63,228 nt of DNA, filler included, from Reclinomonas americana ATCC 50394 (GCA_048213135.1; 8 parts of 4 records of this genome joined end to end with filler, not necessarily neighbours in it), one strand, 5' to 3'. Shown: positions 2,906 through 62,245, counted from the first letter of the whole stretch. The notes: a model not told the origin generated them from the sequence alone. Translations and numbers: made by a program.

Positions 2906-5900
2906 ATGGAGCCTCCACAGAGCGGCCTCTTGCCGCGCATCAGGTGCATTGCTGTGTCGACATACAAAATGTATCTATTGTGCGCTGCGCGGGTGAACTC
3001 AAGCACACATGCAGGTCGACCTCAATCGAGCGCCTCATCCAGCTGGCGAGCAACTCCGGCGACCAGTACATGAGCTCGGCCATCTCTGACGTGCTCATGC
3101 AGCTGGTGGACCGCACACCGGTGGATATCGCCGCGCTGTCCGCGATTCATGCGCCGCCTGCGATGGTGGCCACACCAGCAGGCGCCAGTGGCAACACCGC
3201 GAAATCGCCTTCACCAGCGCGACGCAAGTTGCTGCCACACGGCCGACTACCGCCTACAATGGGCGGAGCGGCGGCGGCGGCAAGTAGCGGCATGCTGACG
3301 CCGACCAAGCAGATTGGAGCAGATAGCTTTGTGCCGACGGGCGACGTGCCACACCCAGTCATGCAACCGCGCGACATTACCACCCTGCAGAGTCGTTCGT
3401 GGATTGCGGATCACTCGCGAGTGCGTTTCCCCAGTTCCCCCGACCTGTTCCGGTGAGTCCTTCTCCTGCATCCATGCTTCCCTCTCCCCAAATTCTCCTC
3501 ACCGCGCCACCACCCGCCTTCCAGTGACCGGTTCGGCGCACTCGACACCTGGCCAGCGAATAGCACGCAGACACGCTTCCCCTCTCCCACCAAGTCGCGG
3601 ACCAAGAAGAAGGCACCAAAGTTCGACCGTCGTGATGCTTTCACCCGCCCCGTGACGCTGCTGGACACGGAGCCACCGTCGCCGCCTGCGGCCTTTGCCT
3701 CCGAATCGCCCGAGTTGCGCGAGCTGGTCGGCAGTGAGAGCTTGGATGGCGGCGGAGACATGCGTGCCCCGCACACACCCGTGCAAGGGGAGCAGGACCA
3801 GCAACAGCAGCACCAGCAACAGTCCTCGTCGTCACACAAGAAGGCGAGACAGGAGACGAGACCAAGTGTTGTCGGTCGTCGCCAGCCGGCCGCCCTGCAG
3901 ACCGGTGACTTGTCGCCGGTAAAGCGACAAAAGAGAGACAGCCCCGAGGTTGTCGACGGTGATGGAGCGGAGCGCGAGGTGGATGGTGCGGTACTCGGTC
4001 GCCTGTTTCCTGTTTCCTCGGTCTCAACTACTCACCCCCTGTTTTGCACAGCGCATGCCAGCAGAACAAGTGTGGAGGCCGACAGGATGCAGCGCTATGT
4101 CGGCGGCTCCAAGCCACAGTTGCTACGCCAGCTGGAAATGTACTTGGATGAGAATCTCACTCGACTCGGCGACCTCGGGTGCGTCCACTTGCTCGTGCCG
4201 TCTTCCTCACAGCACTGCTGACTGTTCCGACTGTTGCAGGCAAGAGGGACCACCGAATCTGCATCGCTTGGCCGTCTTCCGCGAGACACTGAGTTGCGCA
4301 CTTGTGTCCCCTGCCCACCTTCACCTCCCTTGCTTACCTTACTCGCCATGGCAGGCCTTCTCCTGGAACAATTCAAAACGTACAAGCCCATCCTGTCGCG
4401 CATCGTGCAAGAGTACGAGACCAACCTGCAAGTGCTGCATGCCAGCCACCTGCTCATTCCCAAGCTGCGACAAAGCATATCCTACGTTCGAGCCGAGCAA
4501 ACGCGCTCGGTGACGCAGGTACACGACGAGTTTCACACTGCCACGACGGAGATGCGACAACAGATCAGGGAGCTGGAGAACAAGCTGCAGAGTGTGTCGG
4601 ATGAATTCAGTTGCGCGCCGCACGTACGCCTCCGCCTCTTTGCAGCTCACCATTACTCACTCCCGAAAGCACAGCTGTGTTGACGTTGGAGTACGAGGAG
4701 GCCAACAAGGAGCGTCAAGTGCTGCGACGCGACAACTCGGAGCTCCGCACACAGAACACTGCGCTGATGGAGGCTCTGAAGGATTTCCGCGAGCGTGCTG
4801 CCACGAGCGAGGAGCTCGCTGCCCGCTTGCGTGAACTGGCCCTCGACCGCGATCGTGTTCTCGACGGTACCGACACAGTCCCTCCTCCGCTCCACCGCCC
4901 TTGTCACTTGCAGTAACTGATGCTCTTCCTCTTGCAGTCGAGCGCAACTTGGCCGCCGTCACCAGGGAACTGGAAAAGACGCGCAGTGACCTGTCGCTCT
5001 CTGTCAGCGCCGCAGTGTACACCGAGCTGGAGCAGGCGGCTGCCGAGGTCCGCAAGGAGAATCACGCGCTGAAGAGCAAGACCAGTGTGTTGGTGCGCCG
5101 CTGCGTTTCGCTCGAATGCCTGCCCTCCACTGCCATTCATGTTTTTTTGCGTGCAGACAACACAACTCAAATCGGCCAGCGAACGTGCCGAACTACTGGC
5201 CGCTCGACTCGCCGAGGCCGAGCGGGCGGTGCAGGCGGCGACAGTGTTGACCCCGAGACCCGACTGGCGTCGGGCATTCCGATCCATCCCCGAGGCCCTT
5301 CTGCCGGCACCACCAAACGGCGGCTCGTGGGCCATTGGCACCACTCCCACCAACGATGCCGTGGACTCGGTGCTCGAGCTCATGTCGACGCAGCAGTGCG
5401 TGGAGGTGTTGTTGAAGGAGGTCGAGTCGGTGCAGCAGCAAGCCGTGCAATATGCCGTGCAAATGGACGAGCTGCGATGCGGCCTGTGGGTGTTTGGGAG
5501 GGCGGCACGAAAGCGCGCCGTGGCCGACGCCAATGGGTGCGTGTGATGCACGAATGTCTCTCTTCTTTTTATTGACATTCTCACTCTCGGTGTGGACGGC
5601 CTACAGTCGGCGTGGACAAGACAAGTGGCTGGTTGGGCTCGGCGACGGGCCGGATGTGCCGCGACACTTGCGCTGGGTGGGCAAGATCGCCAACACCAAT
5701 GTGCAGAAACGGGAGCTGCACGAGTCTGTGCGAGCGTTCTTGGAGCACCGTCGGTCGGTGATGGCTGCGTACACACTGGAGAGCAGGACAGTGCCCGAGG
5801 TCAAGTCTTGCAGCGCCCCCCCTGCGTGTTTTCTTGTCTCTCGAGCCATCGCTAACGAGTCGTCGTTTCCGTGGTGCAGTTTGATGATGCGTGGTACGGT

Positions 5901-7287
5901 TTTGTCAAGTCACAGCAGAACGACAGCCACAAGGAGGCCACCGAGCGCATCTACAATCTTGTGGACGCCCTTCAGCGCTACCGCTACGACGCCGAGCTGG
6001 ACACTTTCAGCCGCGTCCTCAAGGGTGTGTGCATCAACACAAGTTTCCTCTCCTTGTCGTGCTCCTCTCACACTCAATTAACTCATGTGCAGGCGAGCTG
6101 GACGAAGCAGTGTTGGGCGAGCAGCAGAGCCTGGTGGCGCTGTTGAACAAGAAACTGCATCGAGTGGTGGACAAGGCGGCGACGGCGGCGGCGGCATCAG
6201 CTGGCCCCGCAGCCTCCCCCGCCGCCAACGAGATGCCGTGGGATGCGTTCTGGAGCTGCGTAAAACGAACGTGTCCAGCCAAGTCCGACGCCTATCTCCG
6301 TCGCTTGGAGGAGGTTAGTAGCTTGCACGCTTTCTATATCTTGCAACCTCGTCACTCAATGCATGCGGCTCGCTGCGATTGCAGGCCGTACGATTGGATT
6401 TCGACGGACAGCTTCCGGCGCAGGTGCCATTCGAGACCCTGCTGCAAGAGGACGGCGATCTGTGCAGCAGTGAATTCGTCGATGAACTGCGCCTCCAGCA
6501 TGTGGTGGAGCGTGAAGTCTTCTTCCGCGATCTCATGGTGTGTTTGCGTGTGTGTGTCGACTGCTTCTTCTTCGGCAACAAGCATGAGTATGGATTTCCT
6601 GATTCGGTGATTTGCCGCACGCAGCTGGAGATCATGAGTCGGGCGTCGATGGACGGTGAAATCTCGCCCAACGAGGCCCTCGCTGCAATCCAGGCAGTGG
6701 ATCCGGCGCAGCAGGTACGAGTGGGAGGCAGAAGTGGAGGTGTGTGCTTCGTTCGACACGGCTCACCGTGCTGTGTGGTCTCCAGATTCGCGAGCTGGAT
6801 CACTTGGTGGCGCGTGGCTTCGACATGCTGACTCGCATCGAGCTGTTGATTCCTGTGGGTGGTGTGGTGGACGAATCGGGCGCCACGTCCAAGCGCTCGT
6901 ACCGGTCGCAGATGCGCGTATCGGCTCACGATTTTTGTCAGGTGTGGTCGAGCATGCTCTGGTGATCTTGCGTGCACGTGTGGTGCGCGCGTCGACTCAC
7001 TTTCTACACTCAGCGTCTGCGCACGGGAGCGTTGCGCCGACGATCGCGAAAACAGTACATTCGACACGGCACTGGCGTCAAGATGCTGCTCGGCGACGGA
7101 CTCGCGGCGGTGCTCCGCGGCACGAGCTCCTCGCACGGCCGACGAGCACCGTCCACCGATCAAGTTGCGTCGCCCTGCGCTGCATCAGCGCCTTGTGTTT
7201 TTTCCTCTTATCCAGTCGTTGTCGTGCAAGCAGGAGGCTCCGTCGCGACCACTGGTGCCACTGGAGCCCCCACGTGGAGCATTGTAG
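2906..7287 (+). CDS. TSNAXIP1-like (translin-associated factor X-interacting) coiled-coil protein, many exons
   Basis: KPQLLRQLEMYLDENL...RLAVFRETL..LEQFKTYKPILSRIVQEYE and GLGDGPDVPRHLRWVGKI resemble conserved TSNAXIP1 blocks; exons are linked by short GT-AG introns; ends are approximate. Confidence 0.7.
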
Positions 7288-10042: not shown

Positions 10043-13000
10043 TTACTTTCGTAGTCGTGCAAGCTCCTCCTGCAGACGCGCGTTCTCCTCCCTCAGTGCA
10101 TCGCACTCGGCATGCAACCTGCACGTGCGCGAGTTAGCGCCAGCCAGGCGATTGTTCTCTCTCGCCAGACGCAACTTTTCTGATGGTGCATCCGCCAGGT
10201 GCGTCATGAGTTCGTTGCGAGCCTCCTCGGCGAGTTGCAGCTGCGCTTGAAGCTGCTCAATCTGCGTGGTTTTCGAGTGCAACTCCAACGTCAACTCGTT
10301 GCAGAGTACGCGCAGCTGATTGCCCTTGTCAGATTGGTTTGCGCGTGACAGCGACTGCGCCAGCGCTTGCTGACGCGTGGCCTCCTTCTTCAACTCCTCG
10401 CGCTCCTTCTTGCCACTATCCAGCAAGCTCTCCAGGAACGCAATGTGTTTCTTGTACCCGTCCATATCCCGTGCGTGCTCACTCGCCGCCTTGGTGCGCA
10501 CCTCCCGCTCGCGCAACACCATGGCACGCAGCTCCTCTGCTTCCGCCGTCATGGCGCTGGCCCGATTCAGGGCGGCTTCGAAACGCCGGTTCGCCGCAAG
10601 AGCCACAATCTCGGCGTCGGGATCCGGCTCTCCATCCTCTGCCACGCACGTTAGAAATGCACTCGACGCTGTGCACCAACACCGTCCACTCACCCTCCTC
10701 GACCGTCTCCAGGCACTCGAGCAAGTCGGCCTCCTGCGACGAAGTACGGTGAGATCGCAGTTCACTGAAAATCAACTCGCACAATAGCACAAACCGACAA
10801 CTCTGCGTCTGAGAACGCACGCGCACACAGAAGAGTGCATGCGTCAGCAACGTGTACAAATCGACGAAAGACCGCATCCCACACTCACCGAGATCCCCAA
10901 ACACGGTGGAGTCCACAGAGGCGGCTGAACCGAGATCGGATGCCTGTGGAAAGAGGCGCACTGGTCTCAGCGGCACCGCCTCGCCGCCATCCTGACTCGT
11001 CCTCTGCGCCGCCAGCACGTCTGGCATGGAAAGAGTGGCAGCTGCGCGACACAGCATAAGCGAGAGCGCAGAGGGAAACTGAATCGTTGATCGCTCACCA
11101 TCGCCTCCCGCTGACGCTGCGTTCAAACGGACACGCCGCTCAAAGGTCAGATGGCTCAAGCTGGAGGCCGCCGAAGACATTTCACTCGCACCGCCGCTGC
11201 CGCCACCCGTGGCGCGCGATGGACGACGGAAGCTCATCTGCACAGTCTCAAAACAAGCATTGTGACTCCACCGTCCTCTGCATCCACGCGTACTCAGGCA
11301 CTCACCCTCGCCTCCTGCATCTTGCGCAGCTTGACGCGCATTTTCTCCACGTACAGCTCCTTGTCGACACGAAGCCGCTTCAGATCGCTGTGCAGATCGT
11401 GCGCCTTGACGGCGGCCTGTCGGCGCGCCTCGCGTGCAGCCAGCACCATGTGCTCCACCTTGCGCAAGTGTCGCGCGAGCATGCGCACCTCCTTGGCGGC
11501 TCGGTCACCATACTCGCCACCGTCCACATCCTCACCACCACCGCCAGCACCACCGTTACTTCTGTCTGCGTCTCCGACAGAGGCTCCAGGTGGTCGCTCT
11601 CGCGCCCCGTCGCCATTCACACGGCCACCCATGACTCCGCCACCGACATCGCTGTCGTCCGTCAGAGACGACATGAGAGCACCAGAGGAGGAGGCATTGG
11701 AGGGCGAGTAGAGTGCCGACGCGCCACCTGCGGACAAGGCACCTCCGGCTCCGCTGCTGAGAGCCGATATTCCTGCACGTCATTTCGACTCAGCAACCTT
11801 GGGTGTGTCAAGAACGACTAATACACAACGGGGGTGCACGCAACTGCTGCTGGCGCTCGCAGCTGGCTGCAAGACCGAAGTCACGCTCAACAACGGAGGC
11901 GCCGACGACGAGAGAGAGGAGGCTGGTAGGGGGCGCGACGCGGCCACAATGGGACCCGCAGAAATGGGAGTGTCTGGCAAGTCACCGTCCTGTCGCTGCG
12001 CCGTCACGAGCGCCTGCGTCCACATGCTACGTTCTTCGTCGCTGGCGAAGAACAAGTAGAGATACTCCTTGCCGACTTTGGCCGGATTCGGCTGATGAAT
12101 GCGCATGCCCACCATGCGGCGCAACTTCTTCGGCAGGTCGTCGGGGTTCCAGTCGTCGGGCCGGTCGAACGTAGCACCTGTCAGATCCAACGAGCCTTTC
12201 GGAGTCGCATACGGCCGCGATGTCTCCTGCTCGTTTGTGAACACACCGCAAAGAAACGACACACACACACACACACTGACCTTTTGCGACCGGTACCAGT
12301 ACAACGTGGTGCGGCGGACCAGTGCATACCGCGTGCGAGTCTTCTTGCGCACAGGGTCCACAAACTCCACCGGCCCCTCGATAGTGCTGCGCCACGCTGG
12401 TGGCATGGTGTACATGTCGTCGCTAATGTCGGTGCCGAGTGTGGTGGTGCGCTTGACACGGCGGCGCACGTTGGGCGACGGCTCCATGTAATTCGGAAAC
12501 GCGTTCGGCGACGAGTCCTGACCGCGACTCGCCAACAGCGCCAGTGCATTCACCTTTTGCTCCACGCACGTTTGCAGAGCCTCAGACTGGTGGCAGAGAC
12601 GCACCAGACGAAAGCAGAGTGAGTCAAGGCGCAGGCCAGCCATGTGCACGACGCCGACCAACTGCAAACCTTGTCGGCGTACTCGCGATTTGCGGCATCC
12701 ACATCGCCCTTGAGTGACTGAACGACCTGCCACGACTGCGACAACAGCATCTGCATCTGGAAGAGCAAGGCGTCGAGGTCGTCCAACTCCACAATGCCCT
12801 CACGCATGTCGGGGTTGCGCTGCACGCTCCACATGAGTACTATTCAACAAAAAAGGGATCTGTCTCGACACTCACCAGCTCCTCGACGAGACGCATGGTG
12901 TCGGACCACTCTTGCTTCTGACTGGCCTGGATCGTCAGCAGGGAGGCACAGTACTGAGCCGGGATGTGGAGCTTCAGCGAGTCGAGCTGCACACGAATGT

Positions 13001-16000
13001 CGTGCAGCAACGAGGTATCCAACACCGAGCCACGCAATTGTAGCTGTCGAAAGCAAGTCGCACGTAAAGCATCAGCTGGCAGGAGGGCAGGAAAAGACAC
13101 CGCACGTACCCGCAAACAAATCGGCTCACACAGCGAGTCGAATGCAATGTGCTCCTCGTGGTACGATACGCCATTGAAGCGAATGTTTTGCACCTCCACC
13201 AGCGTCTTCATCTCTGTGCACTTCGTGTGAGCAGGCGAGAGCGCATGAGTGTACGTGGCAGCCACACCAACGGAACCCTTGTCAGGCAGTGATGCGGCGG
13301 CAGCAGCTGTTGATGCGCTACCATGGCGACCTAGTAGGTGCATCCACGCGCATGAGTTCGCCCATACACCAGTCAGCATGAGGAGGACACACTCACCTGA
13401 TCGTTTCACCGACTGAATGCCGCGCAGCGCATCGACCGTGTCAATGCTGATGCTCATGACGTCGTTCTTGTCGCTCTCGTCGAGCACAAAGATCTCGGTG
13501 CCGCGCACGAGAATGTGGAACTCCAGAGCAGCTGCACACGCGTTGCTGTGTTTTAGTACGTGGCAACAAGAGCGCGATCGCCACACGTGAGAGACGAAAC
13601 GACTGGGCTTGCTCGTGGCCGTCTCCTCGTCCACCTCCGACGTTCCGACACCGTCAACATCAAACTCGGTGAAACGAGGTCTGTAGTAGTTTCTCTCTCG
13701 CCGTCAGTGACTGCTCCAACAAGGAAGGAACATGTGGACAAGCAGTCGGCGCTCACCGTGATGGTGGATCGTCCTCCGATGACATCTCATCATCAAAGTC
13801 CAATGCATTCAAGCGCTCGGCAACGGCGGCCGCCATTGGCGTGGCAGGCGCGTGCAGCTGATGCAGGGGTGATAGTGGATCGCGAGCAGTTGGGTCTTGA
13901 AGGCGCTCCAGGAACTTGCCGGGATCGTCGACGATCTTTTGCACGCGCAACATCAACCTGCAATCAACGTCGTGCGGTTGAATAAAACAGCCGGTAGTGA
14001 TTAACACGGTCGAAAAAGACGCACTGTGTGACAGCTTCCATGGGCGCCACATAAAAGTGGTTGTCGCGACTGAGCAAGAAGCGCCCGAGCTGCACCGCCA
14101 CCTCCCGCAGTCAGTCGAAACAGAAACAAACAACGCGAGTCCCCGGTCGCAAAGCACACTCACGCAACATGACCAATGTTGCTCGAATTGACACCCACGT
14201 GGATCGAGTGTGCACGCATAAACAGACGAACCGGCAGCACCTCCGGCGGTGCCTCGACCACAGACGACGATTCTCCTACTGCGTGGCATATCTGCTCTGA
14301 GAACAACTGTGCAGATGAGAAGAGATATTTTTTCTGCAGACCCACCTCGCGCCACATCCGACGTAGGCGGCGGCGGCGGCGGCGGCGGCAGGGGAATCTC
14401 CACACGCACGGCAATCATGGGCTCCACTTCAAGTGGCAATGTGTCGCGACTGATGATCATGGTGGTGGAGTCGCTTGCCGCTGGAAGCACACAGCACAAA
14501 GGTGAGCTCGTGAACGGACGGCAGTGGCACAAGATAGGCGGCGCACACACCAGAGGATTCGGTGAACCAGCTGTTTTGCCGATGGGAGGCACGGTCGTCG
14601 GTCATGCGCGAAAAGTAGCGCTCCAGGAAGCGGTGCTTGTTGGTGAGCAGCGCCGAGGCCGGCGACGGTGACTCAGGCGGGCAAAACACCTGTTTAATGG
14701 GGACAGCAGGCAGGGAAGTAAGTCGTACGGTCACTGCGTCCGGCAAGCCGGAGCGACATGCTCACCTCGACCGCCTGCAGCGTGGCCTTCAACACCATCA
14801 GCTGCTGCGCTGGCTGCACCTGCACGAGGACGTGTGTGTCGGACAGCTCGACGGATGAGAGCACTGCGGTGGTGCTGTGCAGTGCTGTGAAGGTATTCTG
14901 TCAGCAGTCAGGCCACCTTGTCGTCGAGCACAGCAACGCACATGTGGAGAGTGTGGGTTCGCGTATGTCCACGCTCTGCTCCAGGGCTACTTTGATGCGG
15001 TGCAACGTGAACAGCGCCAGCACACTGCAACATTCGCACGCTGCGAGATGAGTGTGGTGGCCAGCCACAACAACTCTGCTCAAGCACGCAACGGAGGGGC
15101 GATCGGTGGGGCGGCCGGCGGCGCGGTGGAACGTGGAGTGACTACCGGCGATCCTACCTCCGACTGCTGCTGTTGTTGTGCCTTCTGCTCCTTCTGCATC
15201 TTCAGGTACTGCTGCAGGAGCACTCGCACCACGTCGGGCGGCGAATCAAAGAACGCATGCGCAAACTCAAACACATGCAACAGCTGGTCTTGGCTGATGG
15301 AGAGCGCAATCTCCTCGACCCGCCCGTACGCCACAATGGCAGGCGCCGTGGCGTGCATTGGCTGACATCATAGGACAATCCACATCAGCAGCATGTGACA
15401 AGGAGACGAGCCGACACCCAAGAACACACCTCGAGGTTCATCAGTAGCTCCACATGCATGTTGAGCGGAGCCAAGATGCGCTCCGGCAGCGAAAAGTAGG
15501 AGCTCTTGACGTCGATCTCGAAGCCATGAATGTCGAACTTGAACATGCGAATGTAGGGGATGCGGTGGGCGTCGAGCCCCGTAAAGTCGCCGAATGTTGA
15601 CGGGAACCGCGGCGCATCTTCCTCTGCTCGTGCGGAGCTCGCAGAAGACGGCGAATTGGGAGAGAGTGGTGGCGACTGTGGTGGCGTCCGTGCAGACGCC
15701 AGATCCACCACTGATGAGCGCTCAAACACACTCCGCGCGCCCAGCACCTCAAACGTGTCGGGTGCATCCCAGTTGTTCGTAATCACGACTGCACGGCTTG
15801 TGTGAGTGACCAGCAACACCACCAGAGAGGAACGAGTGCATGGTGCACGCAACTCTTGTCAAAGTGCATGCGCAGGATAACGCCGCTCGGGAACGGAGCC
15901 GGAATGGAGATGGTGGGCGATACGACTTCCACACGCATGCGGAACGGATCCGACGGCAGCACGGGACCTTGAAAGTTGACGAGTTCCATTGGCGGCTTGA

Positions 16001-19044: not shown

Positions 19045-22000
19045 ATGTATCGAGCGTTTGTCGACAAGCTGGAGGTGCTGGAGCGCACCGTGATGGAGCA
19101 GGCAGAGTCGAGTTTTGACTCGTCGAAAGCGGCCGCTGAGGTCACCACACGCCCCTCGTCATCTTCCGCGAGCTCGCGCAAGGTGTGTGCGCGTGCGGGG
19201 CACTTCACGAGTGGCGTGTCGCTCACAAGGGGTGTTTTTCTTCATAATGATAATAGCTGGATTTCGACGCGTGGGATACGGACGACGGGCGCAAAGCGGC
19301 GCTGGGTCATGCGCATCGCACGCTCTTTGAGATGGGCAAGGAGCGCATACGGCATGCGTTTCGTGAGCTCATCGAGGAATACAAGGCGGTGACGGAGGCC
19401 GACCGAGAGTTGCACGGGGGCGGTGATGTCGAACAAGACGATCAGGTTCGAGCCGTTGCACACACACTGAAAGAGACGCGCTCTGTGCTAAACACAATTT
19501 GCTGGGTGTGCGCAGAACGAGTGCGAGCGCCTGAGGAGACTAGTCGTCACTCTGCAGCGCGACCTTGCAGTTACTTCACCGCCCCGGACACATCCAGCTC
19601 CTCGCACCTTTTTTTCACACTCCCCTCTCTGTCACCTGCGCAGGAGAAGCAACGTCGACTGCACGAGAACGGCGTGTACATTGAGGTGGCGAGGGCGAAG
19701 CTGGACCGCAAGAACAAGGTCATCATGTACATTCGACGGACACTCTTCCAGGAGGTGGTGCGACTGCGCGAGGAACTGTACAAGCAGAGCAAGGCCGGCG
19801 GCAACTACACGGTACGTAGAGCAAGGCGTTCGCGATCGCATGTGTGACCAGATGGGCTCACACACGCGACGGTGGCATGCAGAGCGAGTTCGAGAGCCTC
19901 TTCGACATGGCGATGTTGATGGACGAGATCTCGCAAGGCGACGGCCCGGACCGCGCCATGTCGCCCGAGGCCAACGCCAACCTGATCGAGAAGCTGAAGA
20001 AGCAAGCCGACGCCAACAACCAGGCCATGGAGCTCAAGTACTCGGTGCTGATGGAGGAGCTGAAGGAGGTATGCGCGAGGGTCGCTTGGCCACAGAGTGA
20101 CGGGAGTTGTCCTCACCTGACTGTGTGGTAGAAATACGAGCGGCAGCTGTCTGATCTGGCCGCCGACATGGGCGAGGAGATTGCTAACCTGCGTGCTGAT
20201 CGGGAGAATGCCGAGATTCAGGCCGACTTGCGCGTCCGCCAGGCCATCGAGGAGGTGGAGAACGAGCTGGAGCTCGTCAGGAGGTGCGCGTCCACATGCA
20301 CCGTGCGCACATCCATTGCCCTCCTCTCTCTCCCTCTCTCTCACACGTGTGCACAGAGATGCCATTGATCGCAGCAGCATGATGGAGGCGGAGATGGAGG
20401 CACTGCAAAAGCGCAACGACGCTCTGAACGCGGACCTCGATCAAGCCATGACCAACTTGGCCGGCTACGACGAGCTGCAGGAGAAGCTTCGGCAGGCCGA
20501 GGAGGAGTTGAATGAGCACCGAGAGAGTGCGCAGGGCCGGCGCGCCGAGTTGGCACTGGCCGAGACCAAGCTTGCGCAGGATCACGAACAACTGCAGGCC
20601 TCCTTCAGGACACTGCAGGCCACCCTCGACGACAAGGAAGCGACACTGGAGGAGCTCGAACGCAAATGCAACGAGCTCGACGTCAAACACTCCGAGTTGT
20701 CGTACGAGAACGAGCGGTGGACGGACTTGCGATCGTCGGTGGTGCTGGACGAGGCACAGAACCGATACATATGCCAGGAGCTGGTGGACTTGCGACGGCA
20801 GATCGCCGACCTGGAGCGCACACTGCGTGACGAAAAGACGCTGCGCAACAAGCAGGCCAAGAAAATCATGTCCAAGGCCAAGGCCACTGGCGAAGAGGAG
20901 AATGGCCGGCGCTCCTCCACTTCGTCGGTCACCTCACCCAACTCGAGAGTTGCGTCGATTGTGTCTCACCCGGTGCCGGTGCGATCTCTGTCGCCTCGCT
21001 CACCCTCGTTGCTGCGTAGGCCGGTACGCCAAGTGGCGCCTCTGCTGGTGGTGCTGTCACAGAGACGGACGACAAGGAGACACAGACACAGGAGGTGACG
21101 GTGGTCGACGGAGGCCGAGTGTCCACGCTGGAGACTGCCAACAGAACACTGGAGGCCACAAAGAAGGCTCTGGAGCAGCACGCATCGACACTGGAGGAGA
21201 AACTCAACAAGGCCACGGCCGATGTCAATCGTCTGCAGCGACGCTTGGTGCAGGTGTGTGTGTGTGGTGGCAAGCGATCGGGAGAGAGCGATGACGAGTG
21301 GTTGCTGACGACGATATGCATCCACAGGTCGGCGGCGAAGGAGAGCGCAAGTTCTTCTCCTCGCCGAGCTCCAAGGGCAGCCCGAAGAATGACACCTCCG
21401 CAGCCTCCGATCAGTACGCGGGCATGGAGGTGGCGCCACCCAACGACGAGCCCTTTGACGAGCGCGCGGCCTTCCGGCCGCGCAAGGGCTCGTCGCCAAA
21501 CAGTGTGCGTCAAGTCGACATTCACGGCCTCGGCAGCGACGACAGTGCCGGCATGTCGGACGACGCGGAAGAATCGAGTTCTCGCCAAGAGCGTCGCCGA
21601 AAGAAGCGGCAAAAGGCGACGGCATTCAGGTGAGCGAACAATTGTTGTACATTTTCCGGTTTTCGGCAGCAGCTGTTGACTGATATCATGACGCGCAGCA
21701 ATATGGATGTGTATGAGCGCATGATGCAACGCTCGGTCCAGTCGCGACAGCGCCTGGAGGAACAGCGCAGCCTGCACGCCGGCGAAGTCCGTCAGATGTG
21801 GGAGCGGCTGCTGGCGGTCACCGGCTACGGCAACCTCTCCGACGAGGTGCTGTCGCCCGAAATCGACAAGATGACGGTCGAGGCGCTCGAACTAGTCGGC
21901 AATGGCGGCTACGGCGGCCGCTCTGGATTCGCTGGTGGTGCCACGAGCAGTGGGACCGAGAGCGACGGTGAGTATCCGCGGAATCGGCCGTCGCTGCAGG

Positions 22001-29788: not shown

Positions 29789-32633
<2,845 letters not shown>

Positions 32634-42114: not shown

Positions 42115-42860
42115 CGCAGCACATCGAGGCCGGCAATCTGCCCGGCGTCCTTGGTGGCCGTACGCTGCGCGTCGTTGAAGTAGGCCGGCACTGTGACCAC
42201 GGCCTTGGCGACCTTCTTGCCAATGTACGACTCGGCCGTCTCCTTCATCTTGACGAGCACCATGGCTGAGATCTCCTCGGCCGCAAACAGCTTCTCCTCG
42301 CCCTTGTAAATCACTTGGATCATGGGCTTGTCGTTCGGGCCTGCACACACGACGAGTGTGAGGATACGGAATCGAGAATCGAGCACAAAAAAGATAGCAA
42401 GGCAGCAGCACACACACATTACCTTGAACGACAGTGAACGGCCACAGCTTCATATCGGCCTGCACTGTGGGATCCGTGTACTTGCGACCGATGAGGCGCT
42501 TGGCATCAAAGACTGCGTATGTGCATGTGTGTGTCAGGAATCTACTACATGCGCGAAATAGTACGAGTGTGTGCGTGATGACGCAACTTGTGTTGAGTGG
42601 GTTGATCGCCGCGTGGTTCTTCGCGGCATCGCCAATGAGGCGCTCCGTCTCCGTGAAGCTGACATAGGAGGGTGTGGTGCGGTTGCCCTGGTCGTTGGCG
42701 ATGATGGTGACCTGGTTGTTCTCGAACACACCGACACACGAGTAGGTGGTGCCGAGATCGATACCGATTGCTCCTGCACGACGGAGAGAGTGTGTGAGGG
42801 GCGGGAGACAGGGAGAAGGGGGGAGAGAGGAGAGAGGAAGCACTCACCGTTGTAGGTCAT
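42115..42860 (-). CDS. HSP70: Cytosolic-type HSP70, 5' part (4 exons)
   Basis: [41 protein letters not shown] and [14 protein letters not shown]. Confidence 0.97.
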
Positions 42861-45204: not shown

Positions 45205-45756
45205 ATGATGCAAGGTCGCACTGCTGTGTTGACCGTGCTGTTGTATGCACTGCTGTTTGCCGCTGTGACGGCCTCAGCTGCGCCGCAAAGTTGCGTTTTT
45301 GTAAGAGTGCGAGACTGAGGGAACGCGTGCCTGCGACGGACCACTAACGGTTTTCCGCATAAACAACAGAGGCGGCAAAGACGTCGGTGTGGCCACCGCG
45401 CGTCCACCGCGGCACTCTGTCGCGCCCAGTGGAGATGCCCGAGTTCACTCGCACACATGCATTTGGAGTCAAGTCGCTGTCGGAGGACGGCACGCTGCAC
45501 TCGATTGCCGGTGATTCCGAGGCCTTTTTCGTGGCCGCCGATGCCAAGTCGTGCGAGGAGGCGACGTCGCCGGCGGGTGTTGCCGTGCGCGGCACGCAGG
45601 TCCGCTTTGTCGGTCACGAGACCACGTTTAACCGTCTCAAGTTGTCCGTTGACGCCTTTGTCGATGGCATCTCGGCCGCCGCCGGTCACTACGTGCTGTG
45701 CGCTCGTGCCTCGCCCGAGCAGCAGTACGAGTCGCTGGCCCCCGTGCACATCTCCA
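45205..45756 (+). CDS. Secreted protein N-terminus, probably the 5' part of the H-type lectin gene
   Basis: Signal peptide MMQGRTAVLTVLLYALLFAAVTASA; Cys-containing beta domain similar in style to 46250-46570. Confidence 0.55.
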
Positions 45757-47039: not shown

Positions 47040-47759
47040 GCTGGCCAATGTCGCCGCTGGCCTCGTGAACTACTCGTCGGCCTCGGCCCGCGAGTGGTGG
47101 ACCCCGAGCGAGGGCGAGCTGTCGCTCGACCGCCACCAGTTGAAGAGCGTCAGCTTTGCGAAGCCGTTTGATCAGGTGCCGCGTGTGGCCACTGGTCTGA
47201 CCCAGGTGCACGCCTCGCGCAACGATCCCGACAACTACACCGGCACCGTGGTCGCCACCAGCGCCAAGGGCTTTGAGCATGAGTTGCGTACACACACACA
47301 CACATACACACACTGCTAGTCCATTCGCAGTGATCGGAAACACTTACACACGTGTCATTTTGCGCGTGCAGGGCTATTGTGCAGAGCAAGTCGCGCGTGC
47401 AGCAGCTGGCGTACTCGTGGCTGGCATTCCCGCCAGTGAGCCGCTCCGGCTACACGATGGAGACGGGCGATTATGCGCTCCGTGCCGATGGCGACTGCGC
47501 CAAGATCGAGTTCCCGACGGCGTTCGCTGCCGGTACCGAGGTCAAGTCACTGGTGTTTGCCACTGGCTGGGAGTTCAACTCGCACGACGACGAGCCGCTC
47601 GACTTTGACCTGGCGATCTCCACCACCACCGAGGACTGGATGGAGGTGTGCCTGGTCGGCGGCACTCGTGGCAACCTGAAGAAGGTGTCCTTCAACTGGG
47701 CTGCCTTTGGCATTCCATGGGCCCCCGTCGCCCCGCAGAGCGACGGTTCCCTCGCCTAA
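47040..47759 (+). CDS. C-terminal fragment with two H-type lectin domains
   Basis: VSFAKPFDQVPRVATGL...YSWLA and IEFPTAF...VSFNWAA; TAA at 47757-47759. Confidence 0.75.
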
Positions 47760-52572: not shown

Positions 52573-54450
52573 TCCGCCACAGCAGCAGCAGCAGCAGCAA
52601 AAGCCGCCGCAGTTGCCGTACATGAACAAGCGCGGCAAGAAGTTTGTTCCCGGCGGCAAGTACGTCAATCCGTATGGCGCGCCGAGTGCGGGCATGATGG
52701 GCGCGCCGCAGGCCAGTGGTCCGTCGGCCTACGAGACCCTGGCGCACGAGTCCATCAGCTTTACCGTCGACCTCAGCCAGGCGTCGACGCTATACAATGT
52801 TGTGAGGAAGGAAGGTGTGCTCTCTTTTCCATGCACTACTTTAGTGTCTTGCTCGGCGGCTGACAGTGGGGTTGTTGCAGAGGCCCAGTGTGCCAAGTGT
52901 CACGTGCGTGGCGCGCTGCAGCTTCCGTGCGAGCACTTTTTGTGCACCGCCTGCCTCGTGGAGCAGGCTGAGCAGTTGGTGGAAGCCTATGGCTCCAGGC
53001 AGAAGCGTCTGGCTGCGGCCGATGCCAAGGCTGCGGCGGCGGCAACGACGACGACCACCACCACCACCACCACCGCCGCCACGACTGGCGTCAGCACGAG
53101 GAAAAAAGGCGGCAAGCAGAAAAAGGCGGAACCGCCAAAGCCATCGGCTGATGCTGTGCTCAAGAAGGTACGCGTTGGAGATGCATGTACAATGATACAT
53201 GCACGTGCTCACTCTCTTTGCCGCAACACAGGAATTGCTCGAGTCGGCCAAGGAAATGGCCCGCAAGCTAAAGGAGAAACAGAAGAAGAAGAGTCGAGAC
53301 AAGGCACAAGCAGCAGTGGCTGCCGCTGCCGCCGCAGCAGCAGCAGCACCGGAAAGTAGCGACGGTGTCGCGACACAGAAGCAGGAGGTGGCAGAGGAGG
53401 AGAAGGAGGACAAGGAAGAGAAGAGCAAGCAGGCGGTGGATTCATCCGTGGTGGCTGTTGCGTACTCTTCCCGCCTAACTGGTCGCGACTTCGTCTCATC
53501 TCCGCACGCAGCATCCGATCCCCGACGTTCTCCTGCAGCAAACGGGATTCGAGTGCATCATTTGCAGAGTTGCGCCTGGCAGCAAGCTTGTCTTCTCGCA
53601 CTCGCTCCTTGCTCACTCTACGAGCTGCACGCAGCATGTGGTTACTGAGTTTGTGCAACTACCGGCTTGCCGTCGAGTGCACGCCTATTGCCTGAAGTGC
53701 GCAAAGGCGTCGTTCCCGCCCAATACCAACGTCGGCTCCTGCGCTTACTGCCGCATGGTGTGTGGGAGGCGGCCGCGCTTTTTGCATTTTCTCGTGCGCC
53801 TGTCGCTGACACGCCCTGTCGCAGACCTCGGCACTGCGAGCACCCATCGAAAAGTACGTGCGACACTGGTCGCCGGATTGTGTGCCGCTCTTTGTCAAGT
53901 GCTGTGTGCGCACGTGCCTTCAAGGTATGCATTGCCATGTCACCTGTCGGATTCTCATCGCCACTGACAAATTGTGTTCGCAGCCGTGCCGGTCAACGTG
54001 ATTGACAGAGCGTTCTCCAAGGAGGAGCAGCAGGCCAAGCGGCTCGGGCAGACAGATCGCGTGCTCAAGCTGCGCGAGTGTCGTCGCGACTACGGGACGT
54101 GGCTGTGTCAGACGATTCGCCAGCGCCGTTCGCAAGCGGCCGCGCAGCAGCTGGAGATGGCGCGCAATCCACCACCCCCACCGCCGCCGCCGCTTGCTGC
54201 TCCTGTTCGGTTTGCAAATGCTCTGCAGCAGCAACTGTCGTCGGCTATGAAGAAGGCACAGTTCCAGTACCCAATGTTTGCGTCGAGTGGCGGGCACATG
54301 AGCTTTTTGTGCGCGTTCGATCACCATTTCCACGAGTTATTCGACGAGGAGTATGATGACGAGTACGATGACGAGCGCGAAGACGAGTACGACGAGGAGT
54401 GCGATTGTGACGAATGTGTGAGAGAGCGAGAAGAGGATGAGTACTGTTGA
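52573..54450 (+). CDS. RING-type zinc finger protein with an acidic C-terminus, 5' truncated
   Basis: CAKC...LPCEHFLCTAC, and after splicing FECIICR|HVVTEFVQLPACRRVHAYCLKC...CAYCR. Confidence 0.75.
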
Positions 54451-54547: not shown

Positions 54548-55857
54548 TCACCAGCGGCCGGTGCCCATGGTCTCCGCCAACGAGGCCTCTTCGTATTTTC
54601 TAATCAAGACGGCTGCGGAACAAAGTTAACAGTGCAACGGAGGGAGAGAGACAGAGACAGCATGCGACGCACTTCGAGCAAGTCCATTCTCCAGTCGCCC
54701 GCGCAGATCCGAGAGCGATTCACGTGCGCGCTGAAGCTCACGGCGAGCCCTGCACCCGTCGTCAGAGGGAACACCCACAACAACTTGCGCAGGAGCAACA
54801 ACGACGACGACGACGCAACTGTGCCTTGGCGGCACGAGTCCAGAACATGCGTACACAATTGAGCACGACCACGGCCTTGCGCTTGCACCGCACCCACAGT
54901 TCATGCATATCTCGCTGATCGTCATCCAGCCACTCCACACCCGACTCCTCCGACTGTGCGTCCACCGCCTGCCGCGTGATATTGTGCTTGGCCATCCACG
55001 CATCCTCCAGCTCGCGCTCATATTGCTCCTGCACTCATCGTCAAGGCGCGCACACCAAAAAGCACCACGGCATACACATTGCGTACGAACCGCAAGCTCG
55101 CGGTGTCGCTCATAGTCGGCCTCGTCGGGGTCAATCAGACCGCCCAAGTCCAATATCTCCAACGTCGAACGCTGTTGCGTGTGAATGGTGAGCTCATATT
55201 TCCGCAGAGAAACGCACCGGAGAATGCTCCTCACCGATCGCGACTTGCTGAGCTTGTCCTCAATGCGCTTCTTCTCGAGGATTTGCCGCACCAAACGATC
55301 ATTCCGTTGTCGCAGGATCTATTATTGTAAACCACTATGAGAAAAAAGGAAAAACCGACGAACGATTTGCTGCTGATGATAAAAGGCAATAATGCGAGTG
55401 TCAGAGTGTGTCGCAGTCGGGTGACAGTTGGGAAATGTGTGAGACACGCGCGCAAGCAAGGCGCGGAAAGAGGCTCACTGCAGTGGGATACACGAGTGCA
55501 AGGGAGAGAGAGTGCGAGAGACACAAATAAAGTGTCACTTGCTCTCATATTCATTCGCACACACTCTCACACACACTCTCGCTCACTCACACACACGCTC
55601 TGTGTATGAGCGCGCACAACAACAACACCAGCACACCCACGAGACATGAGAAGAAGAAGAACGCCCAAGGAAAACCGTCTCTCTTTCTCTCGGTCACTCA
55701 CTCTCTCTCTCTCTCCCTCTCTCCCACCACACACCTTGGCAATGTTCTTCTTGCGCCGATCACACACCAACAGACCGTGCTTGAACTCCAGCGCGTTGGC
55801 CTGAAGCTGACGGAGAGCCGTCGAGCCGCCCTCCTCGCCCACACTCTCCTTTAACAT
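54548..55857 (-). CDS. Hypothetical helical/coiled-coil protein, multi-exon
   Basis: Exon chain MLKESVGEE...KNIAK|ILRQRND...|QEQYERELEDAW...|ARRELQRARESL; last exon uncertain. Confidence 0.5.
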
Positions 55858-56218: not shown

Positions 56219-56412
56219 NNNNNNNNNNNNNNNNNNNNNNNNNNNNNNNNNNNNNNNNNNNNTTAATTAATTAANNNNNNNNNNNNNNNNNNNNNNNNNN
56301 NNNNNNNNNNNNNNNNNNAACGGCGGCTTGTGCGCGCGGCACTGCGGCGACTGGGATTCGAAGTCGATGACAAGTGATCATTTCACTCTTTCTCCACACC
56401 ACTGCGAGTGAC

Positions 56413-57821
56413 TCAGCGACGCTCGTCCGTGTCGGTGGCTCGTGAGCTTGCCCACGCTCTGGCGCGGTCCTCTTCGCTCATCGACCGCTCCACATCGGCG
56501 TCGCGCGGAGTGTTCAGTGGAGGCTGTGTGGGGCGACGACCGCGGTCAAAATCGTCAATGTCGGCGTCGGCGTCGCGGAATGAGGGCGGTCCACTGTTGC
56601 TGCTGCCCGATTGGAAGGGTGACGGTGCGCTGGCACTTGACAGCGGCAACAGGCGGAACAGGGTGCTGGCAATGGCGTTGATGGACGTGGAGAACTGGCG
56701 ACAGGAAGCGGGGGGGAATGAATTGGAGAGGCAGCGACACGGCTTCTGTTTGCGTGCACGCACCTGATTGTGCACATCGCCGAGCCACTCGAGCTCGTCG
56801 AGTCGCCGATCGAGGAAGCCCCATGTCTCCTTGAATCCGGGACTCCGATCGCGCAGCATGTACACCTCGGTGGCGCCGTAGACACCGGCCAGTGCCGCGC
56901 GCTTCAGGTACCATTTGTGCTGCATGTGGATGCGAAGAGTGAGCGAGTGAGTGAGGCGGTGAGCAGCTATGCATCGGACGAAACATCAATCGACGTGTCG
57001 CCGCAGTGATGCCAGATCTCGTCGACGAGCAGCGCGCCCTGTCGCAGACTATCCGGTAGCATTGGTGGCGACGCAAGCAGTGCCATGGCCTGTACACATC
57101 TCAGCAACAGACACACCACTCGACAAGGAAGACTGGGGCACGCAAACCTGCGGCCAGCTGGCCATAAACGGTTCGAGCATGAGCAGCCGCGTTCGAATGC
57201 ACGACTTGAGGCGATCGCGCACCGGCAGGCTGCACACCACACACACACCACCTCAGCGACCTGCGTGCGTGCTCTCAAGCAAAGAAGAAGAAGAAAGAAG
57301 ATGACGCAACGTGCGGAGATTGGTGTTGGCCAGCGTCCGCGACAGCTCCAGATTCGACGACTCCACCACGTACAGCGCCAACTCCGCCCCCGCACCTCGC
57401 GGGAACATGCCCAGTGCCGCCGGCGACAAGTTCAACTGCACGAGAGTCAGAGCAGACTGCGAGCAAAGCAGACAGAGAGGGAACGACGACGCAACATCAA
57501 CAAGCGCCGCCTTGACACTCTGCTCCGACCACCCATACCGATGCACATGCCCCAGCGCCTTCTCCAGCACCTGCTCGCGACGGCCCTTCCCGCCAGCCCC
57601 ATCACTAGCACTGCGAGACAGTGAGCAGCAAGCAAGCAGAGACAGAGACAGAGACTTTAGTGCTGGTACCGATCGCCCTCGCCCATGGCCGCCGCCAGAG
57701 TCGATGTCGACTCGCTGGCGGCTGCTTCTGAAGCAGACGATGACGTCACAGAGTCGCCAGTGAAGAGTCGAGCGCGTGAGATAAGCCGAGGGAGAACAAG
57801 AGCTCTGCGCAAGAGAAGCAT
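56413..57821 (-). CDS. COQ9: Ubiquinone biosynthesis protein COQ9, mitochondrial
   Basis: HVHRYGWS, GMFPRG, LVDEIWHHCGDTSID|HKWYLKRAALAGVYGATEVYMLRDRSPGFKETWGFLDRRL; Arg-rich presequence. Confidence 0.92.
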
Positions 57822-57896
57822 GATTGCGAAAAAAAGCAGCAGAAGCGAAAATTTCTCACTCTCTTTTTTGTGTGTCATCCTTTGTGTGAGGCGATA

Positions 57897-58772
57897 ATGG
57901 CGGCGGCAGCGGCAGGCGGAAAGACGGCGGCACCACTGCGGTGTGTGATCACACACACAGTGAGAGAGAGAGAGTGTGTGTGTGACACGTGTGTGACATG
58001 GCCATGTGTGTGCACAGTGAGATCTCGCGCTTGGAGGTGGCCGAGCACTGGAAGGACGATGATTGCTGGTTGATCATTGAGGGCAAGGTGTGTGTCTCTG
58101 TTGTCTCTCTCATGTGCACACACGCACGTGCGCTGACTTGCACATTCGTTTGTTTGGCAGGTCTTCAACGTGACCAAGTTCCTGCCCGATCACCCCGGAG
58201 GCGCAGACATTCTGTTGCGTAAGAGAGAGTGTGCTTGTGTGTGCGTGTGTAAGAGCTGTTGCTGATGATGATGCACGCGCAGGCTGGTGAGATACGCGTC
58301 GCATATCGGAGTTGATGCGCTGTTAGTTTTGAGTCACTCACCTCCGTCCTTGTGTGTCTTGCTTGACGCGCTCGCTGAGTGCAGGAGGAGGTACGCCTAT
58401 CATCCCTCTCTCTCACATTGCTCGTGTTCTCATTTGACTATGCAATGCAGGGCGGTGGCGATGCCACAGAGGGCTTCCTCAACGTGGCGCACAGCAGCAA
58501 CGCGCGCACTCAGATGGAGTCGTTCCTCGTCGGCACCGCCAAGTCCGAGACTGAGGAGGAGAAGCAGCAGCGGCTAAAGATGGTCGCCGAGCGCAGTTCC
58601 GTTCATCGCTCTCTGCATGTCTCGTTTGTGAGTCGTTTGCTGAACCCATTGCCCCGCAGGAAAGAAGGTGGCCGCCAACCGCCCCGGTGCCGGCAGTCCC
58701 GTGTGGCTCAAGCTGCTGGTGCCGCTGCTCATTGTCGTCTTTGCGCTGCTCACCCGCTTCATGGGCAAGTGA
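57897..58772 (+). CDS. CYB5: Cytochrome b5 with a C-terminal membrane anchor; includes 4-nt and 6-nt microexons
   Basis: EVAEH..DDCWLIIEGK|VFNVTKFLPDHPGGADILLEE|GGGDATEGFLNVAHS; transmembrane segment WLKLLVPLLIVVFALL. Confidence 0.92.
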
Positions 58773-60344: not shown

Positions 60345-60444
60345 NNNNNNNNNNNNNNNNNNNNNNNNNNNNNNNNNNNNNNNNNNNNTTAATTAATTAA
60401 NNNNNNNNNNNNNNNNNNNNNNNNNNNNNNNNNNNNNNNNNNNN

Positions 60445-62245
60445 GAGGGCGAGACCATTATTCAGGAGGCGGAGAACGAGCCAGAGTTTGACGGCAACGT
60501 GCTGATCCTGCGCGTGTTGAACATGCAAACCAAGTACCTCAACTTTGTCAAGGAGGAGTTTGAGAACTCGAACATTTTCCACCGCGCGCTGAAGGAGGCC
60601 TTCGAGGCCTTTGTCAACACCGAGGTGAAGATCAAGGACCAGCGCATGCTCATTGCAGAAGTCTTGTCGGCGTTCTGCGATTCAATGATGCGCAGCGGTC
60701 GCGAAAAGTACACTGACGAGGACATTGAGGTGCGTGCGCGCATTATTATGACCTGCCGTCTTTATTTGTGTTGACCGCGCTCACTCTGTATACGTCTTGC
60801 TTGCGGTGTGCAGGAGTTGCTGGAGAAGACGGTACATTTGTTCCAATATGTGCACGACAAGGACTACTTCCACGAGAGCTACAGGAAGCTGCTGGCGAAG
60901 CGCCTGCTGGAGAGTCAGATCAACGAGCACGAGGAGCGCATGCTCATTTCCAAGCTCAAGGTGCGCACGCGGGCGTGAACATGATTTTTGTAGGCGCAGT
61001 GGCCTGACTCGTTCCTTGCTGGAACAGATGCGACTTGGTGCGGCCTTCACCAACAAGCTGGAGACAATGATCAACGATCGCAACATGAGCACGGAGCAGA
61101 TGCAGCGGTTCAAGAAGTGGACTGNNNNNNNNNNNNNNNNNNNNNNNNNNNNNNNNNNNNNNNNNNNNNNNNNNNNNNNNNNNNNNNNNNNNNNNNNNNN
61201 NNNNNNNNNNNNNNNNNNNNNNNNNNNNNNNNNNNNNNNNNNNNNNNNNNNNNNNNNNNNNNNNNNNNNNNNNNNNNNNNNNNNNNNNNNNNNNNNNNNN
61301 NNNNNNNNNNNNNNNNNNNNNNNNNNNNNNNNNNNNNNNNNNNNNNNNNNNNNNNNNNNNNNNNNNNNNNNNNNNNNNNNNNNNNNNNNNNNNNNNNNNN
61401 NNNNNNNNNNNNNNNNNNNNNNNNNNNNNNNNNNNNNNNNNNNNNNNNNNNNNNNNNNNNNNNNNNNNNNNNNNNNNNNNNACTTGTTCCGACACATGAT
61501 CTTTGAGCACATTCGTCGCGAGGTGATGGGTGCGGTGCTGGAGAAAATCAACGAGGAGCGCAAGGGCGATGCGATTGATCGCTCAAAACTCAAGTCGGCG
61601 ATTGAGGTGAATGGCCGTCTTGTCGTCTCATCGCCTCCGGTTTTGCTGGAGAATCGGCTGACCGTTGTTGTCTGTCTCCGCCCAGGTGTTTGTGGAAATG
61701 GGCATTGAGGGCGAACTGTCAGTGTACAAGCGCGAGTTCGAGGAGCCGTTCCTCGTCGACACACGCAAGTTCTACATGATTGAGTCGTCGGCGTGGTTGG
61801 AGATGGACTCGTGCCCCGAGTACATGACCAAGGCCGAGCACCGCATTCATGAGGAGCAGCTGCGCGTCGAGCACTACCTGCACGCTACTACGCGAGACAA
61901 GCTGATGAGGTGGGTGGGATGGGGAGGGCGATGGGCATTCAGCAACCGAGTTGTCCGACACGTGATATGCGCGCGCACGCACACACAGAGTGGTGGACGA
62001 CGAGCTGCTGAAGAGTCACCAGGAGCAGTTGCTGAATATGGGCAACTCAGGTTTCCTGGCGTTGCTCCGCACGCAGGATCGTGACAGTTGCGCGTCCTCT
62101 CTTGTGTGTTGAGTACGGCCGCTGGAGTGAGTTAAGTGACTCACAACGTGCGCACACAGACCTCGGCTTGATGTACCGCCTGTTCCATCGGCTGACCGAC
62201 GGTCTGGAACCGATGGCACTGATGTTCAAGGAGGAGGTGAAGCGA
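60445..62245 (+). CDS. Cullin (CUL1-like) fragments, contigs out of order
   Basis: DKDYFHESYRKLLAKRLL, MLISKLK and FTNKLETMIND in 60445-61124; the upstream-type segment INEERKGDAIDR, YKREFEEPFL, SCPEYM, DLGLMYRLF lies after it in 61482-62245. Confidence 0.88.

Follow-up and report, generated by a model that had tools for sequence, protein, structure and literature searches.

A second class of 5′ splice donor, with the consensus (C)(A/T/C)/GTT(G>T)CGT (the slash before GTT marks the exon–intron junction, as do the slashes in the donors below), was found in about 16–25% of the introns of a stretch of Reclinomonas americana ATCC 50394 DNA (GCA_048213135.1). The sequence basis of the work is the whole of that stretch, a 63,228-base window with about 57 kb of sequence from one draft assembly. 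Judging from the junctions fixed exactly in four conserved genes, it is very likely that the second donor class exists. We further consider it probable that the introns of the GTTGCGT class are ordinary U2-type GT–AG introns with a second donor consensus, and that their early recognition helix lies one position off register. At all seven junctions that were fixed by homology or by PDB alignment, the introns had GT and AG ends, and their removal restored the reading frame and the homologous protein. Hereafter, donors with T at +3, G at +6 and a base other than G at +5 are termed shift type, and those with G at +5 are termed canonical.

Junctions fixed by homology

Exons of three conserved genes were mapped by tblastn, and every junction within 60–100 nt on each side was scored, with any dinucleotide allowed, by aligning the spliced peptide to 10–14 homologues; those of COQ9 were taken from a full HMMER search. 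Junctions scoring no more than 4 units below the best were regarded as near-best. The scans fixed six shift-type donors (31854, 34166, 35615, 57495, 57310 and 56984), each of which was the sole GY–AG pair in its near-best set, and PDB alignments fixed a seventh in HSP70, at 42587. The shift-type introns of the four genes are listed here.

31854..31929 (+), thioredoxin reductase intron, 76 nt, donor t/GTTGCGTT, acceptor CAG, peptide GDVLY/GKLE; 7 near-best of 1792 junctions; found in both gene-finder passes
34166..34226 (+), saccharopine dehydrogenase-like intron, 61 nt, donor c/GTTGCGTC, branch CCTCAC, acceptor TAG, peptide RGTMRYP/GF; 4 near-best of 1842
35615..35690 (+), saccharopine dehydrogenase-like intron, 76 nt, donor a/GTTGCGCT, acceptor TAG, peptide LVLT/GVIS; 6 near-best of 982
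33997..34062 (+), saccharopine dehydrogenase-like intron, 66 nt, donor c/GTTGCGTA, branch GCTGAC, acceptor TAG; moderate support
42513..42587 (−), HSP70 intron, 75 nt, donor a/GTTGCGTC, branch CCTGAC, acceptor CAG, peptide NT/(I)FDAK; PDB alignment
57436..57495 (−), COQ9 intron, 60 nt, donor t/GTTGCGTC, branch CTCTGAC, acceptor CAG; 21 near-best of 1510
57230..57310 (−), COQ9 intron, 81 nt, donor c/GTTGCGTC, acceptor CAG; 28 near-best of 1518
56920..56984 (−), COQ9 intron with the variant donor GTTTCG, 65 nt, donor t/GTTTCGTC, peptide GDTSID/HKWY; 6 near-best of 1220; absent from the list in the preliminary description

At the 34166 junction, where the spliced product reads RGTMRYP/GF, the homologues have RGTLRRPGF. 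In HSP70, alignment with PDB chains such as 1s3x_A and 5bn8_A places the last complete codon of exon 1 at residue 66 and the first of exon 2 at residue 68, and therefore the codon split at 42587 gives exactly residue 67. The moderately supported junction at 33997 lies in a poorly conserved region; it was the top GY–AG pair (score 103.0, vs 115.2 for the unconstrained best), and no other in-frame GT donor lay nearby. COQ9 (56413–57600, −), which the gene finder split in two, has four introns, of which three are of the shift type (57495, 57310 and 56984) and the fourth carries +3T in the canonical register (57147). In total, 8 of the 15 junctions in the four genes were of the shift type, the 15 including the predicted-only g/GTAATG donor at 42422 in HSP70. 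Several of the sites in HSP70, thioredoxin reductase, the saccharopine dehydrogenase-like enzyme and COQ9 had been described as well-constrained junctions in conserved proteins, and the homology scans and PDB alignments bore this out.

Junctions with other kinds of donor served as controls for the scans.

33608..33693 (+), canonical intron, donor g/GTGAGCAT (GTGAGC); sole GY–AG pair among 10 near-best of 2012
33796..33878 (+), canonical intron, donor g/GTACGAGG (GTACGA); sole GY–AG pair among 9 near-best of 1191
35431, canonical donor g/GTACGT; one of three near-best GY–AG pairs
32026..32080 (+), canonical donor without −1G, t/GTGCGTGT (GTGCGT); top score of 1155 junctions
57090..57147 (−), COQ9 intron with +3T in the canonical register, donor g/GTTTGCGT (GTTTGC), with +5G and −1G; sole GY–AG pair among 9 near-best of 1137
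31651..31737 (+), GC–AG intron of thioredoxin reductase, donor g/GCAAGTGG (GCAAGT), acceptor TAG; sole GY–AG pair among 13 near-best of 2097

Gene models and the exon-side rule

Introns were predicted across the window with a dynamic-programming gene finder that paired a per-intron penalty with a three-periodic Markov model of coding sequence; the model had been trained on the window itself. The intron features that it scored were acceptor type, a CTNAY branch motif and length, none of them donor-based, and any GT carried equal cost. This donor-agnostic pass predicted 120 introns, of which 12 had a GTTGCG donor, vs 69 GTTGCG hexamers among the 7624 GT sites of both strands; the 11-fold enrichment (binomial p = 1.3e-9) was the highest of all hexamers. 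On the reversed, uncomplemented window, the finder predicted 2 introns and no GTTGCG donor, with 40 GTTGCG sites on offer. A self-trained pass, in which a donor table of the +1 to +6 hexamer was learned from the finder's own output and iterated, settled at 138 introns with GTTGCG as the donor of 26. The shift type accounted for 19 of 120 introns (16%) in the agnostic pass and for 34 of 138 (25%) in the self-trained one.

The heptamer GTTGCGT occurred 28 times on the two strands, vs 13.0 ± 3.7 in 100 dinucleotide-preserving shuffles, none of which reached 28. The agnostic pass used 11 of these 28 sites as donors and the self-trained pass 21, vs at most 20% for any canonical heptamer (GTGAGTC); GTTGCGC was less specific than GTTGCGT, with 4 of 29 sites used. 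Among the 7 GTTGCGT sites that were not called donors, 3 are unresolved sites from the preliminary description, and 1 is antisense to a modelled gene. Two GTTGCGT sites, at 27986 (+), c/GTTGCGTG, and 10175 (−), a/GTTGCGTC, lie on the sense strand within modelled exons, and may be further donors missed by the gene models.

The preliminary description had listed 28 sites (45757 and 21 others on the plus strand, 6 on the minus strand) as carrying GTTGCG or one of several named variants after an exon ending in A, C or T. One of these motifs was present at all 28, and the last exon base was A at 15, T at 8, C at 5 and G at none. The agnostic pass recovered 11 of the 28 as donors, and the self-trained pass 20. 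The sites at 8866 and 45757 have no visible acceptor because contig ends follow, at 130 and 58 nt, respectively. As for the variants, GTTGCG was indeed dominant among the predicted shift-type donors (26, with 4–5 for GTTTCG), but GTTGAG was found at none. The self-trained pass added seven unlisted GTTGCG donors: 7164+, 14168−, 15092−, 15853−, 28068+, 28369+ and 40652+.

The base preceding the donor separated the two classes, and is an independent observation because the donor table used +1 to +6 only. In the agnostic pass, −1G was present in 52 of 63 canonical donors vs 0 of 19 of the shift type (Fisher p = 2.8e-11), and in the self-trained pass in 65 of 74 vs 0 of 34 (p = 4e-20). The 65 of 74 agree with the earlier statement that the common donors GTGAG, GTGCG, GTACG and GTGTG follow exonic G. 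Among +3T donors alone, those with +5G (GTTCGT, GTTTGC, GTTAGT and GTTTGT) kept −1G in 8 of 10 cases vs 0 of 19 for those with +6G (p = 1e-5), a pattern that favours a register shift over a bulge at +3. When the three exon-side bases of the class were scored on the canonical columns, the log-odds were +7.4 with a shift of one base vs −36.1 in the same register. Intronic +4 to +8 placed on canonical +3 to +7 gave +55.4 vs −57.8 unshifted, although these values partly follow from the class being defined by its hexamer. Positions +3 to +7 of GTTGCG donors (TGCGT) equal canonical +2 to +6, and the 26 GTTGCG donors had T at +7 in 21, A at −1 in 13 and C at −2 in 13, the last two being the preferences of canonical −2 and −3.

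In other respects, the introns of the class resembled the rest. Their median length was 72 nt vs 74 for the others, the acceptor was CAG in 22 of 26 (the remaining 4 having TAG) vs 75 of 89 for introns with non-GTT donors, and intron phase did not differ between the classes (p = 0.58). CTNAY was present in the last 45 nt of 88% of the 26 GTTGCG introns vs 82% of the 89 non-GTT ones, a comparison that is not fully independent, as the finder scored this motif, which is nevertheless visible in all the homology-fixed introns.

The canonical donors themselves have a particular composition. Among the 65 with both −1G and +5G, +4 was C in 23, T in 19, A in 18 and G in 5, almost no preference, and +3 was G in 44 vs A in 11. 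Such a low share of A at +4 is unusual against the textbook consensus, and this +4 pattern may bear on the 5′ end of U1 in this organism. The canonical donors lacking −1G, in which an enrichment of GCGT was also sought, numbered only 9.

Comparison with the homology-fixed junctions exposed three errors of the finder: the donor at 32026 was placed 6 nt off, that at 56984 was missed, and the GC–AG intron at 31651 was missed because only GT donors were allowed. An earlier finder, based on codon usage only and lacking intron features, was noisy and mis-modelled HSP70; a plain listing of canonical-looking donors with open flanks was too noisy as well, because GTGCGC is common in coding sequence. 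The remaining GTTGCG-class introns, which are predicted by gene finding, are listed below.

4293..4354 (+), 62 nt (not a multiple of 3), donor a/GTTGCGCA; self-trained pass; nearest alternative in-frame GT donor 60 nt off
4610..4674 (+), 65 nt, donor a/GTTGCGCG; self-trained pass, the agnostic pass having preferred a GTGTGT donor 18 nt upstream
7164..7233 (+), unlisted, 70 nt, donor a/GTTGCGTC; self-trained pass
11728..11844 (−), 117 nt, donor a/GTTGCGTG; both passes
14090..14168 (−), unlisted, 79 nt, donor t/GTTGCGTG; self-trained pass; read-through meets a stop 6 nt past the donor
14875..15092 (−), unlisted, 218 nt, donor c/GTTGCGTG; self-trained pass; the acceptor is the least certain
15789..15853 (−), unlisted, 65 nt, donor a/GTTGCGTG; both passes; no alternative in-frame GT within 60 nt
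20949..21019 (+), 71 nt, donor a/GTTGCGTC; self-trained pass
23753..23829 (+), 77 nt, donor t/GTTGCGTG; self-trained pass
23915..23978 (+), 64 nt, donor t/GTTGCGTT; both passes
28068..28134 (+), unlisted, 67 nt, donor c/GTTGCGTC; self-trained pass
28369..28442 (+), unlisted, 74 nt, donor a/GTTGCGAC; self-trained pass
40652..40712 (+), unlisted, 61 nt, donor c/GTTGCGTG; both passes
45290..45369 (+), 80 nt, donor a/GTTGCGTT, branch ACTAAC; both passes; no other GT donor in frame, and reading on meets a stop 26 nt inside the intron
47283..47371 (+), 89 nt, donor a/GTTGCGTA; self-trained pass; no alternative in-frame GT donor
53457..53634 (+), one 178-nt intron, donor t/GTTGCGTA; self-trained pass; two introns, 53457–53511 and 53569–53634, with a 57-nt exon between them, as in the preliminary description, are equally possible
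54750..54819 (−), 70 nt, donor a/GTTGCGTC; both passes
58214..58282 (+), 69 nt, donor t/GTTGCGTA; self-trained pass
58596..58659 (+), variant donor a/GTTCCGTT, 64 nt; both passes; no alternative in-frame GT donor
62087..62159 (+), in a cullin fragment, 73 nt, donor a/GTTGCGCG; both passes; gene model only

The window that carries these introns has a G+C content of about 58% (Ns excluded), and consists of eight contigs joined by seven spacers of the form N44-TTAATTAATTAA-N44, each carrying stop codons in all six frames; further N runs lie within the contigs.

8996–9095, 38270–38369, 42015–42114, 45816–45915, 52128–52227, 56219–56318 and 60345–60444, spacers N44-TTAATTAATTAA-N44

Some of the joins interrupt genes, HSP70 being an example. 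Pfam searches of the open frames returned a eukaryotic nuclear gene set, which comprised WD40, adenylate kinase, a PH-domain protein, GPAT, a large thioredoxin reductase, the saccharopine dehydrogenase-like enzyme, HSP70, an H-type lectin, an SRF-type factor, COQ9, ankyrin and cullin. The closest proteins in large collections shared 55–65% identity; this was the range of the best identities of the dehydrogenase, to Mucorales, Bacteroidota and unnamed metagenome proteins, and the thioredoxin reductase reached 57%. A metagenome scan, whose 80 loci had no further part in the analysis, gave a best identity of 60% and no close relative for comparing intron positions, and an Rfam search of the window gave no match at gathering thresholds. 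The predicted last exon of the thioredoxin reductase, at 32518–32547 (+), ends in ...GGCST followed by a TGA stop, and the homologues fetched have ...(T/S)GC at the predicted stop. Cullin is represented by three fragments on one contig.

60445–60771 (+), cullin fragment, Pfam profile positions 291–390
61662–62081 (+), cullin fragment, Pfam profile positions 151–233
62645–62914 (−), cullin fragment, Pfam profile positions 48–106

Their order is scrambled and their strands are opposite, which looks like mis-scaffolding across N gaps. In an alignment with cullin PDB chains, the homology of the open frame at 61662–62081 stops near a predicted donor at 61910.

Recognition of the second donor class

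The preliminary description had aligned G/GTGCG with /GTTGCG, the cleavage being offset by one base, and had proposed recognition in a shifted register as a major mode in this lineage. The alignment describes the data well, as the exon-side log-odds and the match at +3 to +7 indicated. The consensus of the class is that of the canonical donor, (C)AG/GTGCGT, with the intron +1 G changed to T and with cleavage at the only GU, displaced upstream by one base. The early helix, in which the U1 5′ end normally pairs with the 5′ splice site, would then stand one position out of register, with the intron +1G in place of exonic −1G, +3U in place of +2U, and G+6 and U+7 in place of G+5 and U+6; the catalytic core would subsequently set the cleavage at the GU. 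We infer this register shift from sequence patterns, and it is moderately supported. In duplex predictions made with the textbook U1 5′ end, ignoring pseudouridines and proteins, the shifted offset was the best in 15 of the 26 GTTGCG donors and the canonical offset in none of them, at energies of +0.5 to −2.7 kcal/mol.

Several observations weigh against this reading. With the same textbook U1, the predicted duplex energy of the class consensus was −1.1 kcal/mol vs −7.5 for the canonical consensus of the window, the means were −1.2 for the 26 GTTGCG donors vs −6.3 for the 89 non-GTT donors, and in 11 of the 26 the best pairing was some other off-register match. The part of the shifted-register proposal that relies on the exon-side bases is supported, as they fit a one-base shift; the weak pairing is not what a simple shift on a standard U1 would give. 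Nor is the class a shifted image of all canonical donors: it is nearly confined to the NCGT subset, and GTGAG was the commonest canonical pentamer (18 of 138), yet its counterpart GTTGAG was predicted nowhere. Likewise, none of the 34 shift-type donors had −1G, where a pure shift would give the share of about 20% found at canonical −2. The absence of −1G might reflect selection against a competing pairing in the canonical register, which is a speculation. Over all 69 GTTGCG sites, those used as donors were 0 of 6 after G vs 26 of 63 after another base (p = 0.076), a weak test because only 6 of the 69 follow G. The self-trained pass rewards hexamers already found and may thus inflate the class, and it left 8 of the 28 listed sites unrecovered (8300, 8441, 8866, 24564, 24782, 45757, 50311 and 53569). 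Finally, the junctions rest on homology and gene modelling.

Because only weak pairing is predicted between GUUGCGU and the textbook U1, and because C+5, G+6 and T+7 are near-invariant, the recognising RNA has probably changed in this lineage, either in the U1 positions opposite +4 and +5 or through a second U1 variant. The weak duplex and the restriction to NCGT suggest that whatever recognises the motif carries G opposite +5 and C opposite +4; the invariant C+5 G+6 T+7 points to a changed U1, a second U1 or some other factor. That off-register donor recognition has been made a main mode, for a fifth or more of the introns, through a changed snRNA (small nuclear RNA) is a possibility that we put forward tentatively. 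Such an snRNA could be a U1 altered opposite +4 and +5 so as to complement GCG, or a second U1 paralogue that is complementary to GUUGCGU and acts alongside the standard one.

A rather unlikely alternative is that a dedicated second U1-like snRNA has a 5′ end fully complementary to GUUGCGU that then pairs with the exonic A and C, and that the standard U1 reads the canonical donors, so that two parallel donor-recognition particles feed one U2-type spliceosome. A separate reader would suit the near-invariance of the seven-base motif, with +7T in 21 of 26, its use at 21 of 28 sites vs at most 20% for GTGAGTC, the weak pairing of the textbook U1 in every register, and the requirement for C at +5 in spite of its mismatch to the standard U1; moreover, human U1 variant genes are known according to the accessible portions of two papers (PMC3561869, PMC10870369). 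However, the exon-side −1 A and −2 C fit an unchanged U10 and G11, a small change in one U1 would suffice, and a second U1 does not itself explain the missing −1G. The motif may also be regarded as GTGCGT plus one T, to be read in the canonical register with one U bulged at +2/+3, G+1 and U+2 pairing normally and G+4, G+6 and U+7 pairing after the bulge. Such a bulge has been experimentally shown in humans, at 54–68 of 201,541 sites in the available part of PMC4856993, but it would leave −1 opposite U1 C9, where −1G is expected as in canonical donors, and 0 of 19 and 0 of 34 were found. The same-register exonic log-odds (−36.1) and the lack of any donor with its best duplex at the canonical offset (0 of 26) also speak against a bulge, which we consider improbable.

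It is very improbable that no real class exists and that chance motifs or mis-set junctions produced the pattern. Outside the four genes the junctions are predictions only, the codon-usage-only finder was noisy, and its successor erred at 32026 (by 6 nt), 31651 and 56984; yet seven junctions were fixed by homology, with scans free of any dinucleotide assumption, the agnostic enrichment reached p = 1.3e-9, GTTGCGT exceeded its shuffled count (28 vs 13.0 ± 3.7), and the reversed sequence yielded only 2 introns. Least credible of all is a set of introner-like elements, that is, recently spread mobile introns that brought their own conserved 5′ end, for in spite of the uniform 5′ heptamer and the similar lengths (interquartile range 65–79 nt), sharing of 8-mers past the seven bases (45 of 325 pairs of GTTGCG introns) was not above that among other introns (1091 of 6216), and +8 to +10 were not conserved; the GTTGCG introns are therefore not a mobile intron family.

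Comparison with known donor systems

The contact that U1 makes with the 5′ splice site by base pairing ranks among the most conserved RNA–RNA contacts in eukaryotes, and to our knowledge pairing off register has been described only as a rarity, characterised in human minigenes. The closest counterpart of the present class is the shifted-register GUUAAGU type of mammals (Roca and Krainer 2009, as cited in the accessible parts of PMC4856993 and PMC9311317). Both have GU followed by U at +3, both continue with the canonical consensus displaced by one base and are cleaved at the GU, and in both the intron +1G would occupy the usual pairing place of −1G. The mammalian type is rare, whereas the class described here comprises 16–25% of the predicted introns and 8 of the 15 homology-checked junctions; its motif is GCGU rather than AAGU and would pair poorly with the textbook U1, and −1G is absent. 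In the available text of PMC4856993, human noncanonical registers together account for 1.5–2.1% of 201,541 donors, and shifted and bulge registers are named in that of PMC9311317 as alternatives to the canonical helix. The human +2/+3 bulge register (Roca et al. 2012; Tan et al. 2016, as given in the seen portion of PMC4856993) is similar in having one extra U after GU, but should retain the preference for −1G, which was found here in 0 of 19 to 0 of 34.

U12-type introns likewise combine a long near-invariant donor motif with no preference for −1G. The class differs from them in that its donor is not RTATCCTY and its branch motif is CTNAY rather than TCCTTAAC; RTATCCTY matched the window once, in an HSP70 intron near the branch region and not at a donor, with 1.4 matches expected by chance. 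Canonical donors of GC-rich protists and algae are GTGAG, GTGCG and GTACG after exonic G. The majority donor class of the window resembles these, and the GTTGCGT class with its non-G −1 base comes on top of it. Diplonemid donors, as far as the accessible text of PMC12621601 describes them, are (G)/GTATG or belong to non-GT–AG introns, and are not GTTGCGT. Donor registers are not treated in PMC10599564. In open-access text, no description of a GTTGCGT donor class or of lineage-specific co-variation between U1 and donors was found.

If a large share of introns in this organism truly has a tightly defined out-of-step donor, it would provide a natural system for asking how the cleavage site is set independently of the U1 register, what U6, U5 and Prp8 tolerate, and whether snRNA 5′ ends can co-evolve with splice sites. 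A second U1 paralogue for GUUGCGU, if it exists, would add a third natural system of donor recognition to those of U1 and U11. In practical terms, gene finders that know a single kind of donor will get at least a fifth of the introns in such a genome wrong, as the first finder passes did here.

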